From a virus, in the UHGV virus genome UHGV-0298370: DNA of 19,287 nt. One strand, given 5' to 3'. A program made the translations under genes and the position numbers. Position 1 is the first letter of the stretch. Every line of letters begins with the position of its first letter. The notes under the pieces are model-generated. The model was not told where the DNA came from and searched no databases. It was given only the letters and a program-made list of their open reading frames with translations. This document shows, piece by piece, positions 1-18,258 of this stretch.

Positions 1-237
1 CAAAACAGAGAAGAGCATCACCGGACGACGGGCTCATAACCCAATCCATCCGGGCGGCTGCCACCGCAGGTGTTCTTCTCTGTTTTGTGGAGAAACTAAC
101 CGCCCCTACGGGGGCATTTATGGAAATGTAATTGACTCAATACTGGTTGAAAATACTTAGCTGTTATGTGCCTGTCTTTTCACCACTTCAGGCTCGGTGG
201 TATCCTTTTAAGCCCGTATACATAAAAGGAAAATCAA

Positions 238-525
238 ATGACTTTTGATGAAAAAGAACTTGATAATGCAATTAATAAAATCATCGTAACGTCGCTCTTT
301 TCCTGTCTCAGCGACACTCAGCAAAAACAGTTCTACGAATCGGCTTTCAACATGATCGAGCGTTGTTGTTTCTGCGATGCCGACGAGTTACCTGAAAAAA
401 TCAGGAAACAGTTGGCTGATGCTCTTCGAGTGCGACTTTACGCGGTGAATTTATTCGTGGCTGGGATGACGGACGTGGTGTGGATGCCGGGCGACAATTA
501 TTATCTTCACAGGGGGATGCAATAA
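238..525 (+). CDS. hypothetical protein (95 aa), unknown function
   Basis: ATG at 238 preceded by AAGGA about 8 nt upstream; AT-rich 5' part; 3' part (420-525) overlaps an alternative open frame (tail-fibre-like cassette), so extent is uncertain. No recognisable family. Confidence 0.3.
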   Translation: MTFDEKELDNAINKIIVTSLFSCLSDTQQKQFYESAFNMIERCCFCDADELPEKIRKQLADALRVRLYAVNLFVAGMTDVVWMPGDNYYLHRGMQ

Positions 526-746
526 GAAATATTGAGGGATTCGCAGATGGCGGGATCGGTATGTCTTTTGATGCAATCAGAGGGGCTTTTTACGATGCAG
601 GAACACGATCAGCGAGAATGCCGAATAACACAACTACTATAGACAAAACCGATGACCTTGGATTCGACGCCTCTCGTGTCGTGCCAACAGCTAATGAAAA
701 CCGTCCACGTAACATCGCCTTTAATTATATTGTGAGGGCTGCATAA
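480..746 (+). CDS. putative orphan tail-fibre C-terminal cassette (frame open from 420, no ATG; GTG at 480); possibly a remnant
   Basis: Frame is open 420-746 after a TGA at 417-419 and ends in TAA overlapping the ATG of the following tail fibre assembly gene (TAATG at 744-748), the arrangement expected for a fibre tip followed by its chaperone. Function inferred from context only. Confidence 0.3.
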   Translation: MDAGRQLLSSQGDAIRNIEGFADGGIGMSFDAIRGAFYDAGTRSARMPNNTTTIDKTDDLGFDASRVVPTANENRPRNIAFNYIVRAA

Positions 747-1339
747 TGAAACCTGTTTTTGATGAAAATGGGCTGGCTACAGTGCCGGGTGATATGCGTT
801 GTTTTTATTATGATGCTGAAACATCTGAGTATACGGGCTGGTCTGATGAATATATTAATACTGGCGTAAGTATGCCCGCCTGTTCAACTGGTATTGACCC
901 TGGCGAAAACATTCCGGGAAAAGTGGCTGTATTTACAGGTAAGGGATGGAGCCATGAAGAGGACCATCGCAATGAGACTGTTTACTCAATCGAAAATGGC
1001 GCAGCTGTTACAGTGGATTATATCGGTGCCATCAAAAACGGTTATGTCACGCTTTCACCGTTAACGCCATATGATAAATGGGATGGTGAGAAATGGGTGA
1101 CAGATACTGAGGCACAACACGGTGCCGCAGTAGAAGCGGCAGAAGCACAGCGCCAGTCACTGATTGATGCAGCAATGGCTTCCATCAGTCTGATTCAGCT
1201 GAAATTACAGGCCGGGCGGAAGCTGACGCAGGCAGAAACCACCCGGCTTAACGCCGTGCTTGATTACATTGACGCGGTGACGGCAACAGATACGAGCACC
1301 GCTCCGGATGTCATCTGGCCTGGACTGCCGGAGGCGTAG
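746..1339 (+). CDS. tail fibre assembly protein (Tfa family), second copy convergent with gpG
   Basis: 197 aa; C-terminus ...LDYIDAVTATDTSTAPDVIWPGLPEA matches the conserved Tfa C-terminal motif and parallels the gpG-like C-terminus ...LDYLDALELVDTSSAPDIEWP on the opposite strand; GAGGG SD upstream. Confidence 0.75.
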   Translation: MKPVFDENGLATVPGDMRCFYYDAETSEYTGWSDEYINTGVSMPACSTGIDPGENIPGKVAVFTGKGWSHEEDHRNETVYSIENGAAVTVDYIGAIKNGYVTLSPLTPYDKWDGEKWVTDTEAQHGAAVEAAEAQRQSLIDAAMASISLIQLKLQAGRKLTQAETTRLNAVLDYIDAVTATDTSTAPDVIWPGLPEA

Positions 1340-1745
1340 GCCATTCAATATCTGGAGCACTGGAGGTATCAACCAGTTCCAGTGCGTCCAGATAATCCAG
1401 CCACAAATTATATTGCGCCAGTTCCTCACCTTTCAGACGACCAATAGCCGCTTTACCAGGCCATTGCTTGGTATTCATATATTCGTTGGACTGATTAATC
1501 AATTGCTGTTTTTTCAATTCGGCTGCGGCAATCTGTTCCTCATGTGTTGGTGGTGGAATTTCAGACCATGCAGGAAAACCATTTTCCCCAGCGATACGGA
1601 TTTTTCCTTTCGGCGGTAATCCGGAAAACTCAATATACACCTGCTCATCAACTTCAACAGCATCATCTGGCCATGAATTTACATTGATGTAGTCATCCTT
1701 AAGCGCAGGATTCACAAAAATATTTAAAGATGGACTAAAAAACAC
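1311..1745 (-). CDS. G: tail fibre assembly protein gpG-like
   Basis: 144 aa, GTG start at 1745 one nt after the H stop with AGGAGG SD; conserved Tfa C-terminal motif; position immediately downstream of H as in P2. Confidence 0.8.
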   Translation of the reverse strand: MFFSPSLNIFVNPALKDDYINVNSWPDDAVEVDEQVYIEFSGLPPKGKIRIAGENGFPAWSEIPPPTHEEQIAAAELKKQQLINQSNEYMNTKQWPGKAAIGRLKGEELAQYNLWLDYLDALELVDTSSAPDIEWPTPPAVQAR

Positions 1746-1746
1746 A

Positions 1747-3144
1747 TCACCCTCCTATAGCAACATAACAGCCCGATACAGGATTTGCGGCAGTCGCTAC
1801 GCTGGAAAAACCACGAAAGCCGCTTTTTGTGATTGCGGAGGCAGATAGTATTCCGGCACCCGAAGGTGTATGCCCCACGTGGCTGGCAACCATCACGTAG
1901 CACGCCGACGGAAAAGCGAAAGGGAAATTGTTTAAATATCCCGCATCATCCCCCAGACTTCCCCCAAACTGCCCCACTCCCCACTGGATAATAAGTGGTC
2001 TCCGAACGCCAGAAATAATTAATGGAATTGCTACATACCCATTCACCAACATAGCGCCGGTTGTTGCGCCAGCCAGAGCCAATTCCCCCAAACCAAGGTA
2101 TGTGAGAAGACCAGCTACATCCTTTCCACTCAAATTGGTAAGCGTATTGTCCAGCGGTTGTTTACCTGCCAGCGCATTAAGCATTGTCGTGGCAAAGTTC
2201 GGATCATTCCCCAGTGCCGCCGCCAGTTCGTTCAGTGTATCCAGTGCAGCAGGTGCAGAACCCACCATTCCTGCAATCGCCGATTTCACAAAAGCCGTAG
2301 TGGCAATCTGTGTATTGTTGACCGACTGCGCCGCCGTGGGGGCTGTTGGCGTTCCGGTGAGTGCCGGACTCGACAACGGTGCTTTTAGTGCCAGCGCATT
2401 GTTAATGGTGGTACTGAAATTCGGATCATTGTTAATGGCTGAGGCTATTTCTTTCAGCGTGTCCAGCGTGGCTGGCGCACCATTAATAAGGGCCGTCAGT
2501 GCCGCCTGTACAAACGCAGTGGTCGCAACCTGCGTGGTATTATTCCCCGCCGCTGGCGTTGGCGCTTTGGGGGTTCCGGTAAATGTCGGGCTGGCTTTTG
2601 GCGCGTACTGTGAATGCGGGTCCGGTGCGGCAAGATGTTTTGCCATCTGATCATCCGCGTACACCTTCAGCTCCAGTGCCTTGTCATCCACATACTTGCG
2701 GGTTGCCAGCACTACAGCAGGGTCGATTTTCAGGGTGATATTGTCCGTACTGCTGGTAATCAGCACCATGCGCACGGTCTGAGTGCGCCCGCTACCTTCA
2801 GCCAGTTGCGGCTTATAGCTTTCCGGGCAGTTGCCCACGGCAATCAATGCCCCGGACTCATCAAACAAGCCCACTTCACGTATCCACCAACCGCCCTCGT
2901 TTTCAGGGATCACCTGTTCGGCAATAATCTGGCTGCTGTTCTGCGGGTCGATATAAAGCATATTCAGCGCAGCCCGGCGTTTCTCATTTACCAGTGCCGT
3001 CTGCTTTGCGTCCGGCGTTGGCAATACTCCACCGCCATCGCCCACCGCCATATGGGTAATTTTTAGCGGCACACCGAGCGCGGCGGCGCTGGCAAGTTTC
3101 GCCGCGCCAATATCCGTCAGCAGGGTATAAAATTTTGTGCTCAT
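1747..3144 (-). CDS. H: tail fibre protein gpH
   Basis: 465 aa; N-terminus MSTKFYTLLTDIGAAKLA...MAVGDGGG...AVGNCPESYKPQLAEGSGR closely resembles P2 gpH N-terminal constant region; internal ATTAFV/NDPNF repeats typical of the family; ATG start, ATGA overlap with gpI. Confidence 0.9.
   Translation of the reverse strand: MSTKFYTLLTDIGAAKLASAAALGVPLKITHMAVGDGGGVLPTPDAKQTALVNEKRRAALNMLYIDPQNSSQIIAEQVIPENEGGWWIREVGLFDESGALIAVGNCPESYKPQLAEGSGRTQTVRMVLITSSTDNITLKIDPAVVLATRKYVDDKALELKVYADDQMAKHLAAPDPHSQYAPKASPTFTGTPKAPTPAAGNNTTQVATTAFVQAALTALINGAPATLDTLKEIASAINNDPNFSTTINNALALKAPLSSPALTGTPTAPTAAQSVNNTQIATTAFVKSAIAGMVGSAPAALDTLNELAAALGNDPNFATTMLNALAGKQPLDNTLTNLSGKDVAGLLTYLGLGELALAGATTGAMLVNGYVAIPLIISGVRRPLIIQWGVGQFGGSLGDDAGYLNNFPFAFPSACYVMVASHVGHTPSGAGILSASAITKSGFRGFSSVATAANPVSGCYVAIGG
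2152..2589. repeat. internal tandem duplication inside H (two ~73-codon units)
   Basis: Protein residues ~186-257 and ~258-331 repeat the pattern TGTP.APT.AA..NNTQ.ATTAFV....APA.LDTL.E.A.A..NDPNF.TT..NALA.K.PL; visible as repeated DNA blocks. Confidence 0.6.
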
Positions 3145-3746
3145 GGATTCACTCTCATTGTGTCAATAACATGGACCGCCCCGCCTTCATGCGCGGTGCC
3201 ACCGGAAATAATCGTTTCGTTGATATACGGATAGATCGTGATTTCTTCGCCAAGATAGCTGGCGGCTCCCACCCAATGCGGGCCGCTGGTCTGCAGATTG
3301 ATGGACATGCCGATCATGTGGCGGCTACATGGTTTGGCATCGCTTATCAGTCGCTCAAGTTCCAGATAGGTATCTTCAGTGATGCCCTGGTCCTGCACGC
3401 CGATATCCAGGCGAAACGTGCCCGGTGTTTCTCCGGTCTGCCACCACTCAATAATGCGGATCAGGAATCCGAACGGTTCCACCACCCGCCGCACGGCACT
3501 GGTGGTTCCTTTATGCTGATGAATATAAAAAGCATCCTTCACTACCTGGCGTTTGACGCTTTCTGTCCAGCCCTCGTCCCAGCGATCCACAGAGAACGCC
3601 CAGGCGAGATAAGGCAGGAAGCTGACCGGACAGGTAGCCGGATTCCACAAGTCACGCAGCGGCACCTGCAAATCAGAAATCCCGCTACAGGTTTGCGCAA
3701 GTCGGCGCTCCAGTGAAGTTGAACCCAGTGGCAGCAGACTATTCAT
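3141..3746 (-). CDS. I: baseplate assembly protein gpI
   Basis: 201 aa; ...LWNPATCP..LPYLAWAFSVDRWDE.W....KR.V..DA...H.HKGT..A.RRVVEP.G....I.EWW....PGTFRLDIGV...GITE..Y.E.ERLI.DAKP.SRH.IG closely matches P2 gpI; ATG start. Confidence 0.9.
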   Translation of the reverse strand: MNSLLPLGSTSLERRLAQTCSGISDLQVPLRDLWNPATCPVSFLPYLAWAFSVDRWDEGWTESVKRQVVKDAFYIHQHKGTTSAVRRVVEPFGFLIRIIEWWQTGETPGTFRLDIGVQDQGITEDTYLELERLISDAKPCSRHMIGMSINLQTSGPHWVGAASYLGEEITIYPYINETIISGGTAHEGGAVHVIDTMRVNP

Positions 3747-15087: not shown

Positions 15088-15118
15088 AAAAAAAAGGGAG
15101 GCAACCTCCCTTTTTTTT
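15088..15118. terminator. bidirectional rho-independent terminator between convergent Q and cargo gene
   Basis: A8-GGGAGG-CAA-CCTCCC-T8: 6-bp GC stem, 3-nt loop, flanked by A-run and T-run so it reads as a terminator on both strands; overlaps the TAA of the minus-strand cargo gene. Confidence 0.75.
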
Positions 15119-16883
15119 AAACATTATCGTATAACTCTTGTATTTTCGTTGGATTTGCAAAAAATCTTGCCGGATAGGCATTCGGGTAATTATCTTCAAT
15201 GTACTCTTCAGCACGTTGAATTAATGCACTTAATTCTTCGGAAAGATTTTTTTCATCTGGAACAAGAATTTCTGAGCTATTATGTATCCCAGAAACGTTG
15301 CTCAATAGTACAGACGCATAGTATCTATTACCATGCGTAATAATTAAATGCTTGCGACTATGGGTCGTTTTATCTACTGATAGTAATGTTTTACCGATCA
15401 ACTTATCTATAACTCTAAAATGTAGAACAGTATTGATAAGTTTTAAACCACTTAATCTTGGATTGAAAATAGTTTTATATAGAGAGCCTTCAAAATTTTC
15501 AAAAAACCTACCGCGATTTGATTTTAGTGTCGATACAACCGTATTATTTTTACTTAAACATGCGAGTGCATTGAGCGCCTCATCCAAGTCAATGACTTTC
15601 GTATTTGTCTGTGAATGATCTTCATCTGTTCTTAGTAACTGATATTGATATCCTTCAAGCACTAACTCCCTTGCCAATCTATGTTGATCTGCCTGCTGCG
15701 ATGCAAAATCTCTTCCCAATACTCTATTTTGGAAATTGTTAGCTTTTGTAATTGCATTTGCAGTTAAATTATCAGTATCATCATCTATAACAATGAATCT
15801 AGCTGGCACTTTGAGTCTATATATGTTTTCACCAAGCGCATCTTTACATGCGCCAATACTACTGACTGTTTGTGCACCATTAATGACACTTACATCACGA
15901 AAATCAAAAATCCCTCTCTCTATATTAGGAGCTGCGTTTCGTCTATGAGGAACAACTTCCTTAACCAGTACAGTAATCCCATTATTATAAAACCAAAACA
16001 TATCAGGATTATCTATAGCTGTCTTTTTTATTTCCTCATTCACTTCTGTTTTACCAAGCATATTCCTTATGTTTTTTGTAAATAATCGAGCACCATGCTC
16101 TTCCCACCATTCTGCAACTTGATCACCACTAATAGCCCCGTAAAAAGCTTGATATGGTTCATTCAAAAATCCAAAACGCTCAATTTCAACCCTGTTAAGA
16201 TCAATTTGATTTCGAGAGCCATTCTGTAACCAATGCATCATATCTTCAGAGGATATTAAATGAACCTGAAATCCCCAGTTCTCTTTAGGCTCATCCTCAG
16301 GTGTAAAAGCTGCAGCGTTTAATTGATATTGCCATTCCCGCATATCATTTAATATTTCCTCTGCAGCACCTTTTTTACCTGTATGCGCCATCGCAAAGAT
16401 GAACTTGTATTCAAAACTACTTAAAGCCGCACTTATTTCCCCGCTTTTATTTTGCAATATGGAATCAAATAATTCGTATCTTTCACTTTGTAGCTTCTCA
16501 CAAGCATCCTTAAAACACATAAAATCGGCTCTTGTCCAAGTGCCGTTTCCCGATTGGTGAAATTTTGATTGAACAACAACAACGATTTTTTCGTTATGGT
16601 TGATTGCTATTCCATCTATACCACCATCTTCACTACTATCACATACAGACTCCCCTGCATACTTATCATCCACACATCCTAACTGATACATAGTGAATGC
16701 AGCTAAAGCCCTGCTAGCCATTTTTACATCATAGTCTGCTTGGCCTGGTGCACACTCTCTTTTATGGATGAATTCTTCATATCTCTTACGTAATACAGAT
16801 CCTAGCCTCTGAGCCATAACCTGTGCTGTCGCAGGTGCAGCAATAGCATTATCTTCAAGCCGAATATCAGTTACAAAAGCCAC
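15117..16883 (-). CDS. Mrr-type nuclease-domain protein with AIPR-like architecture (candidate abortive-infection/defence protein)
   Basis: Long AT-rich ORF; start uncertain (TTG 16940 without SD, GTG 16883 with GGAGGG SD, ATG 16817). N-terminal motif SEDGGIDGIAINHNEKIVVVVQSKFH resembles the Mrr catalytic PD-(D/E)xK core (D-G-G-I-D ... Q-x-K). Size and layout are reminiscent of AIPR-family proteins; not verified by HMM. Confidence 0.65.
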   Translation of the reverse strand: MAFVTDIRLEDNAIAAPATAQVMAQRLGSVLRKRYEEFIHKRECAPGQADYDVKMASRALAAFTMYQLGCVDDKYAGESVCDSSEDGGIDGIAINHNEKIVVVVQSKFHQSGNGTWTRADFMCFKDACEKLQSERYELFDSILQNKSGEISAALSSFEYKFIFAMAHTGKKGAAEEILNDMREWQYQLNAAAFTPEDEPKENWGFQVHLISSEDMMHWLQNGSRNQIDLNRVEIERFGFLNEPYQAFYGAISGDQVAEWWEEHGARLFTKNIRNMLGKTEVNEEIKKTAIDNPDMFWFYNNGITVLVKEVVPHRRNAAPNIERGIFDFRDVSVINGAQTVSSIGACKDALGENIYRLKVPARFIVIDDDTDNLTANAITKANNFQNRVLGRDFASQQADQHRLARELVLEGYQYQLLRTDEDHSQTNTKVIDLDEALNALACLSKNNTVVSTLKSNRGRFFENFEGSLYKTIFNPRLSGLKLINTVLHFRVIDKLIGKTLLSVDKTTHSRKHLIITHGNRYYASVLLSNVSGIHNSSEILVPDEKNLSEELSALIQRAEEYIEDNYPNAYPARFFANPTKIQELYDNV

Positions 16884-16985
16884 AGTCCCTCCATAAAGAC
16901 ATCTGGTACAACTCAATGCTGGGAATAGTGCACATTTCAATGAGATAAATCCACTAATAATCTAGGATTTATGAGTTAGCGCGCG

Positions 16986-17139: not shown

Positions 17140-18258
17140 TTAGTTCGTAATGCCAATTTCCTTCAAAACTTTAGCCATTTCCGTCTGACTTAACTTGTTC
17201 CTGAACAAAGGGAAATTTTTCATTTTTTCCGCTCGTTGCCCTTTTGAAATAGTAATCTTTCCTGATGCTGATAACTCAGAGTCAAAAAAATAACATATTG
17301 TTGAATTTGAATTCTCCATATTTGACTTGATACAATTCCATATGCTTTCTTTTTTCATTTCACACATTCTAGGACCAAAAATGATCCCTTTAACAACATT
17401 AGCATCATGATGAAAAATATGTCCAATATTTCGATTTACGCGTCTTTGAACATGCCGCTCACTCCCTATTCCTGCATTTGCCTCTGGAATAAACATTCGA
17501 TATTCAGCTTCATATCTCCAAAATCTATTTTTAGTTAAAAATAACTCTGCAACATTTGCGCTTGGGTCTAGAAGTGAAACCTCTTTAGCCTGATTACTAT
17601 ATTTTATTTGCTTAACTGGAAAATTAAATTTATCTGATGAAAATAAATTTTCTCTTAGCTTCATTCCAGGATGTGGCACGCCATTAATATTAAAATCCTG
17701 CGTTTCATAAATCACAACACAACCACTAAAGCCTGCAGCATAATGCGCCCACATCATACGATCTAACGCATTAGCTGAAAATGACACACTGAATACTGCA
17801 GGAACTATTTTCCTATACAACCTTTCTTTGATACTGTTCTCGCAAAGTGAGACCAAAAATTGGCGTGGTTCAGGAATATTCCCATAAATAGCGGAATTAA
17901 TCACATTGATAGGTAGTAAACCATCATTTATGATCTTACGTATCTCATCAACGTGTGAGTCAAACAGGCTATCTAATGACTCAATGCTACTTTTTATTTT
18001 TTTTCCTCTAAAAATACGATTCAATCCCTTATGTATCTTCAAATTACTCAAATCTAATATGTGACTCAAATTTTCATAGGATTTATCGCAAGGAGAACGC
18101 AATAAAATATCCCATAATTTCAATTTATTATCAAAACGATAATCTATATTGAGATCATTAGGATCATTCAATTGCGCAGGAGCGGAAAAATATAATTCAT
18201 TATAACGAATAGCTTTCTCGAAGAAGAAGTCCGGACGGTAATACTTGAAAAGATACAT
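17140..18258 (-). CDS. DUF2971-like protein (candidate defence-associated protein of unknown mechanism)
   Basis: 372 aa, AT-rich; N-terminus MYLFKYYRPDFFFEKAIRYNELYFSAPAQLNDPND matches the hallmark DUF2971 N-terminal pattern (KY..........LYFS.P..xNDPxD); ATG start; terminator-like hairpin downstream. Confidence 0.7.
   Translation of the reverse strand: MYLFKYYRPDFFFEKAIRYNELYFSAPAQLNDPNDLNIDYRFDNKLKLWDILLRSPCDKSYENLSHILDLSNLKIHKGLNRIFRGKKIKSSIESLDSLFDSHVDEIRKIINDGLLPINVINSAIYGNIPEPRQFLVSLCENSIKERLYRKIVPAVFSVSFSANALDRMMWAHYAAGFSGCVVIYETQDFNINGVPHPGMKLRENLFSSDKFNFPVKQIKYSNQAKEVSLLDPSANVAELFLTKNRFWRYEAEYRMFIPEANAGIGSERHVQRRVNRNIGHIFHHDANVVKGIIFGPRMCEMKKESIWNCIKSNMENSNSTICYFFDSELSASGKITISKGQRAEKMKNFPLFRNKLSQTEMAKVLKEIGITN

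Follow-up and report, generated by a model that had tools for sequence, protein, structure and literature searches.

Invertible fibre cassettes of the Din family are represented by the G segment of Mu (with Gin), the C segment of P1 (with Cin) and the P segment of e14 (with Pin). The layout of an e14-like cassette is fibre variable part, assembly gene, assembly gene' and variable part'. Each carries two 26-bp crossover sites and a recombinase gene, and a functional Din-type cassette requires both sites in inverted orientation together with a serine invertase. Recombination between prophages at shared fibre cassettes is common. In phage P2, the gene fun(Z) is located between G and FI on the strand opposite to H and G, and its product comprises 528 aa. 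Lambdoid prophages of E. coli, Shigella, Yersinia, Klebsiella, Salmonella and Cronobacter contain small genes of the family PHROG 3311. Finally, the RefSeq entry WP_000141754.1 is a hypothetical protein of 95 aa from a cryptic E. coli prophage.

The window analysed here is a stretch of 19,287 nucleotides (UHGV virus genome UHGV-0298370). Profile searches of its genes identify the late region of a P2-like prophage. A P2-family capsid gene and the genes of baseplate J, Tail_P2_I, fibre H and assembly G are found on the minus strand, the gpP-type terminase and portal genes on the plus strand. Past the portal gene, the cargo site of the P2 old/tin type holds two likely defence genes. The first (15117–16940, minus strand) encodes an AIPR/AbiU-like protein (Pfam AIPR, E = 7e-35; PADLOC AbiU, E = 7e-25). 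The second (17140–18258, minus strand) is a PDC-S31 candidate (E = 3e-23) with a weak match to DUF2971.

Near the left end of the window, a small open reading frame (ORF) of 95 codons (238–525, plus strand) begins with ATG and ends with a TAA at 523–525. A Shine-Dalgarno-like AAGGA (226–230, plus strand) is positioned 7 nt before the ATG and is the same in Shigella phage SfV, in Escherichia phage SKA5 and in a prophage remnant between sbcB and dacD of E. coli. Judged from its alignments, the ORF is a chimera of codons 1–66 of a PHROG 3311 gene and out-of-frame fibre DNA. Rather than a new and intact cargo gene, it is very probably a fusion relic left by prophage decay and mosaicism. For annotation this is a warning: a frame of 95 codons with a clean ATG and a good ribosome-binding site may be the product of a deletion that linked the start of a genuine gene to unrelated sequence.

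The PHROG 3311 family and its native sites

In a six-frame count, 49 ORFs of the window reach at least 90 aa, so the length of the small ORF by itself is within chance. Homology raises it above chance. Codons 1–67 match the PHROG 3311 profile with an E-value of 8.7e-46 (155 bits), and the ORF covers profile positions 1–67 of 81. Native homologues cover the profile nearly end to end (positions 1–74 to 1–81), including the conserved C-terminal end of helix 3, a coverage that the ORF does not reach. The part that corresponds to the family gene (codons 1–66, 238..435 on the plus strand) encodes the first two helices and the beginning of helix 3.

An exhaustive HMMER search yielded diverged homologues of 72–84 aa, which are 38–58% identical and aligned over residues 1–67. 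Profile searching added further members with the source names Yersinia, Salmonella, Klebsiella and Cronobacter (36–64% identity, 72–84 aa). Matches with more than 90% identity in the protein search are all from Escherichia. Residues 1–66 (ending in ALRVRL) are common to all homologues in this search, and the divergence afterwards tracks the downstream DNA. Codon alignments of seven members from different genera are dominated by changes at the third codon position (e.g. 22/10/43 differences at positions 1/2/3), with dN/dS of about 0.06–0.25 where dS is measurable. By these alignments, PHROG 3311 is a genuine coding family under purifying selection, which holds for the family and not for the window copy.

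For the native protein of 81 aa, AlphaFold2 on the family alignment predicts three helices (residues 5–22, 26–46 and 53–75) with a mean pLDDT of 83. Comparison of this model with the PDB and BFVD by Foldseek gave no match at E ≤ 0.001 (best E about 0.7). Likewise, Pfam, NCBIfam and PADLOC searches with the ORF and the native homologues gave nothing over threshold. A sub-threshold match to Pfam HD_assoc (E = 0.018) was taken as chance.

In all native loci inspected, it is a single gene whose neighbours are on the other strand. One recurring site is beside a cI-type repressor gene (E. coli/Shigella, Yersinia and Klebsiella). The other is in the late region directly upstream of the holin gene, with Q on the other side where visible. 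PHROG 3311 is widespread in lambdoid prophages and, in terms of gene order, behaves like a moron or moron-like accessory gene. Judged by position and fold only, the native product is most likely an accessory protein that is expressed in the lysogen and binds a partner protein. Neither of these antisense sites is kept in the window, where the gene abuts the fibre DNA of a P2-like prophage. The right study target is the intact 81-aa gene beside cI in SfV-like phages and not the window copy.

Database records are inconsistent at the PHROG 3311 locus. The published SfV annotation and PGAP in an O157:H7 genome place an orf33-like ORF on the minus strand (L002 (SfV) 3258–3554), about 84 nt of which overlap the 3' end of the plus-strand PHROG 3311 gene. 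In the SKA5 record, the plus-strand gene is annotated instead. Literature searches for SfV orf33 and STnc100 found nothing about the small ORF.

The 5' block, the junction at 436/437 and the fibre cassette

The ribosome-binding site and the first 66 codons are part of an SfV-like lambdoid immunity-region fragment (143..436, plus strand). This fragment is 99.7% identical to SfV (24960–25252) and the Escherichia phages SKA5 and vB_EcoM-720R4, where its counterpart belongs to the immunity region between the early-left genes and cI. It is 100% identical in many E. coli genomes, the sbcB–dacD remnant among them. The GC content is 29–37% at 201–350 compared with roughly 45–60% deeper in the window. 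A consensus scan detected a weak, terminator-like hairpin with a T-rich tail (182..210, plus strand) between the left junction and the ribosome-binding site; it is also present in the native context. Consensus scans of the window and three native loci found no sigma-70-like promoter upstream of the start.

A four-way alignment shows sharp borders at 142/143 and 436/437–439, and in a megablast search against phages the fibre-cassette homology begins at 437. Codons 67–95 and the stop codon (436..525, plus strand) are fibre DNA in the wrong frame and form an accidental tail, YAVNLFVAGMTDVVWMPGDNYYLHRGMQ, in place of SDQFSEMCSPNLDK, the end of the main native form of 81 aa. The frameshifted tail-collar proteins P0027, P0028 and P0036 end in the same peptide as the ORF, which identifies the tail as the +1 reading of fibre DNA. 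The C-terminal motif of the family, RL-S(D/E)(Q/R)(L/F)(A/S)E(L/M), is absent from the window copy. AlphaFold2 models the 95-aa chimera with a pLDDT of 65, and residues 78–81 and 83–95 are below 50. Partial function is possible, since helix 3 of the chimera is still modelled through residue 77, with low confidence. Many frameshifted or interrupted alleles of the gene were found. The junction at 436/437 was also considered as an inversion crossover site and rejected, as the real site is located 144–169 nt further upstream in the intact cassette.

The second plus-strand frame is open from 420, after a TGA at 417–419, and is homologous to tail-collar proteins from 437 onwards (EFIRGWDDGRGVD... 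/ TLRGEFIRGWDDGRGVDAGR...). It represents the C-terminal 103 codons, truncated at the 5' end, of the variable segment of an alternative tail-collar fibre (437..746, plus strand), without start codon, crossover site and promoter. The same stretch is part of a 251-aa fibre gene in an e14-like locus (L012 6001–6310); the fragment is without the 5' 145 nt. PGAP annotates it as an incomplete pseudogene.

A second tail-fibre assembly gene follows in the silent half of the cassette (746..1339, plus strand; Pfam Caudo_TAP, E = 2.3e-26). The assembly gene in use, equivalent to P2 G, is on the minus strand (1311..1745; Caudo_TAP, E = 2.8e-35). It is adjoined by the P2-type fibre gene H (1747..3144, minus strand; N-terminal Pfam Phage_tail_fib, E = 5.4e-65, and Gp53-like_C), whose gp53-like variable C-terminus derives from the cassette. 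A Din-type (hix/gix-like) crossover site of 26 bp, TTCCCCCAAACCAAGGTATGTGAGAA, is located inside H at the border of the constant and variable parts (2083..2108). It is the sole match in a pattern search of both strands of the window with up to 8 mismatches. Positions 437–2108 are 99.6% identical to an e14/SfV-type invertible cassette of strain BE2-5, which has, besides the fibre gene, two assembly genes in convergent orientation, an alternative end of the gp53-like kind and the gene of a pin-type recombinase. The homology to the e14-like locus extends to 2108, within H.

The e14-like locus has two Din-type sites (L012 5832–5857 and 7647–7672), and the partner site of the intact cassette is 144–169 nt upstream of the fragment start at 437. 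No invertase sequence is present anywhere in the window. As one crossover site is left and an invertase is missing, the fibre switch is locked in a single orientation and the silent half is not invertible. A tblastn alignment of Pin to the minus strand at 366–434 (23 residues, 30% identity, E = 0.038 against 500 nt) is attributed to chance because the DNA there is SfV immunity-region sequence.

The descriptive points of the initial annotation are all correct, since the ORF, the AAGGA, the low GC content and the second frame were found again. ATG and ribosome-binding site are both in place, and the AT-rich 5' two-thirds, described as unlike the backbone, is lambdoid DNA foreign to the P2-like prophage. 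The two frames do coincide over 420–525. It had been added that only one of the two readings can be right there, but probably neither is in use, the fibre fragment being without its 5' 145 nt, crossover site, start and invertase. The homology and structure prediction proposed for checking gave the PHROG 3311 match for codons 1–66 and no fold match in the PDB or BFVD. Among the PHROG 3311 homologues, conservation of the frame extends to residues 1–66 and not to the tail, which is set by the downstream fibre DNA.

The left flank, the probable recombination interval and the proposed origin of the fusion

Positions 1..142 are a fragment of a lambdoid early region from just upstream of a yfdR-like gene, inverted with respect to SfV, SKA5 and the sbcB–dacD remnant. 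They are 100% identical to the reverse complement of the remnant (L001 4653–4794) and 97.9% identical to that of SKA5 (L003 2653–2794). In the remnant, the source stretch is 206 nt to the left of the equivalent of position 143, and the same relation is found in SfV and SKA5. As 1–142 matches the reverse complement at this distance, a stretch of 348 nt appears inverted in the window. This implies, as far as the alignments go, a small inversion (about 348 nt) or a more complex rearrangement upstream of the gene, with the breakpoint 95 nt before the ATG. Positions 1–142 are colinear with 143–436 in no complete E. coli genome. An invertible switch of 348 nt was considered and discarded: the window orientation occurs in no complete genome, and the ends carry no matching inverted repeats. 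A long imperfect hairpin with 24-nt arms (1–24 and 64–87; 83% complementary, 39-nt loop) spans positions 1–87 and is followed by a GC-rich hairpin at 101–116. The two hairpins are conserved features of lambdoid early-left DNA ahead of yfdR-like genes.

Directly to the right of the junction, an STnc100/PasD-like prophage sRNA gene is represented by a 5' stub of 16 nt (143..158, minus strand). It corresponds to L003 3001–3016, and the rest of the gene does not adjoin it. In SKA5 the STnc100 match is full-length (L003 2794–3016, minus strand) and scores 45.2 bits compared with the Rfam gathering score of 47 (E = 3e-8). The gene ends there in an 11-bp GC hairpin with a T-run. In SfV-like phages it runs divergently from the native 81-aa gene. 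Background on STnc100/PasD is given in bioRxiv 10.64898/2026.05.13.724894. A search of the whole window with Rfam gave no family at gathering score.

WP_000141754.1 is the same 95-aa fusion, and its locus is the cryptic prophage remnant between sbcB and dacD, in which int, an xis-like HTH gene, yfdT, yfdR, the ORF, an incomplete fibre gene and an assembly gene follow one another. Of 5,426 complete E. coli genomes, 73 contain the fusion junction and 430 the native 3' end. In the assembly collection, 5,177 blocks list the exact 95-aa protein, and inspection of seven contexts showed the decayed sbcB–dacD prophage each time.

The region downstream of the junction changes its type. Compared with the e14-like cassette, positions 437–1322 have one mismatch, at 479. 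Compared with the sbcB–dacD remnant there are 46, all at or beyond 560. The switch from remnant-like to cassette-like sequence is thus placed at 480..559, an interval that spans the stop codon of the ORF. The simplest reading of this mismatch pattern is that homologous recombination through the shared cassette joined the block to the P2-like module. Shared invertible fibre cassettes would then serve as recombination bridges between unrelated prophages, here P2-like and SfV/e14-like ones.

The following course of events would explain the arrangement. An old deletion in a decaying SfV-like prophage may have joined the gene after codon 66 to the mid-variable part of a tail-collar fibre gene. The frame would be wrong at the join, and translation would run through 29 unrelated codons to a chance stop. 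The fused block would have persisted in E. coli in the cryptic prophage between sbcB and dacD. Recombination in the shared fibre/assembly-gene cassette at 480–559 would finally have set the block beside a P2-like fibre module. We infer this order, the deletion and then the recombination via the cassette. The window copy is presumably non-functional or at best crippled, because helix 3 is without its native end, the upstream DNA is rearranged 95 nt before the ATG and a recognisable promoter is absent. The intact ATG and Shine-Dalgarno sequence count against a relic. So does the 95-aa frame, which is identical in many genomes; this may be clonal inheritance, and use is still possible.

The sequence record may also be at fault. 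In an assembly chimera, two prophage loci of one genome would have been joined via the shared fibre repeat, and the ORF would belong only to the sbcB–dacD remnant. Such an error in the source record is possible because no other sequence searched shows the 142/143 junction or the overall arrangement: neither this junction nor a link between the ORF and the P2 gene H occurs in the 5,426 complete genomes, and an exact search showed the junction to be absent from genome, viral and metagenome collections as well. In addition, the type switch is inside an 80-nt stretch that is identical in both parents, and strain BE2-5 has both parental loci. We nevertheless consider an assembly chimera unlikely. 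Real recombination at fibre cassettes is frequent among prophages, and 80 nt of shared sequence is short for a repeat-collapse error. It would concern the context only and leave the identity of the ORF unaffected.

Cargo, fibre switch and comparison with known systems

The initial annotation had placed the ORF at the Z/fun hotspot of P2 and suggested a small accessory or anti-defence gene. The ORF is indeed located beyond G and the silent half of the cassette, on the fun(Z) side of the fibre genes. FI is outside the window, and positions 1–436 are all lambdoid; no P2 G–FI intergenic or pF promoter sequence is found among them. In the related P2-like prophage of strain N21, the silent half of the cassette is followed at this place by a pseudogene of an invertase and next by FI, the sheath gene. 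The hotspot assignment agrees with the side of the fibre genes. Arrival as an insertion into the hotspot is not supported: the 5' block matches E. coli copies and the immunity region of SfV-like phages, and the join is inside the shared fibre DNA at 480–559. The accessory gene is right about the origin of the 5' part in a genuine accessory family; an intact cargo gene is not present, as codons 1–66 only are kept up to the deletion junction at 436/437. The anti-defence suggestion found no match in PADLOC.

It is unlikely that the ORF is intact and works as a small accessory or anti-defence gene, expressed by the lysogen as cargo of the Z/fun hotspot of P2. The good ATG and AAGGA, the AT-rich and foreign 5' part, the position beyond G and the moron-like nature of the parent family (a lone antisense prophage gene) agree with such a gene, and the frame is intact in 73 complete genomes. 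However, the C-terminus conserved in the family is gone and replaced by out-of-frame fibre DNA, and the gene exists in many frameshifted or interrupted alleles. The upstream region offers no sigma-70-like promoter. No resemblance to Fun(Z) and no PADLOC, NCBIfam or informative Pfam match supports a cargo function. Moreover, the join to the P2 module is inside shared fibre sequence and not at a hotspot boundary, and related P2-like prophages have an invertase remnant at this place.

It is quite unlikely that PHROG 3311 is a moron expressed in the lysogen for a particular task, for example superinfection exclusion, anti-defence or regulation of cI or of the neighbouring STnc100/PasD-like sRNA, and that the 95-aa fusion is still active through helices 1 and 2 and half of helix 3, while its fibre-derived tail is tolerated or has even been put to use. 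Hardly credible is a meaningful fibre frame (420–746) that provides an alternative C-terminus switchable into H by inversion and makes the small ORF an annotation artefact: 437–2108 is nearly identical to the e14-like cassette with its two crossover sites and pin-type recombinase gene, and one site is present in H (2083–2108), but the fragment starts 144–169 nt past the position of the partner site, the window holds no second site or invertase, the frame follows the stop at 417–419 without a proper start and is an incomplete pseudogene according to PGAP, and protein-level evidence independently supports the 5' part of the small ORF.

The fusion relic can be compared with each of the described systems. 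The ORF and P2 fun(Z) agree in their side relative to the fibre genes, and both run opposite to H and G. The two products have no significant similarity (best one-to-one BLASTP E = 0.094 over 30 residues). The layout of the Din-family cassettes is matched by 437–2108, but the window has one site and no recombinase, compared with the two 26-bp sites and the recombinase gene of these cassettes.

The closest intact relatives are PHROG 3311 members such as those of SfV (an unannotated 81-aa plus-strand ORF at 25054–25296) and SKA5 (WQM42312.1). With the E. coli/Shigella members the window copy shares residues 1–66 (99–100% identity), the start codon, the ribosome-binding site, the upstream 95 nt, helices 1 and 2 and the start of helix 3. 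It differs from the family by the absence of profile positions 68–81, i.e. the end of helix 3 with ...S(D/E)(Q/R)(L/F)(A/S)E(L/M), where it has 29 unrelated residues. The neighbours are fibre genes in the window, compared with cI, or Q and holin, for the PHROG 3311 members. At the WP_000141754.1 locus, the upstream stretch of 348 nt is in the native orientation, which is not the case in the window. Downstream, a decayed stub of fibre and assembly genes followed by host genes contrasts with the complete P2-like fibre module of the window. Between these flanks, WP_000141754.1 is the same fusion with the same junction at 436/437, in a position matching 238–525 of the window, and the nucleotide sequences are 98.9% identical over 143–700.
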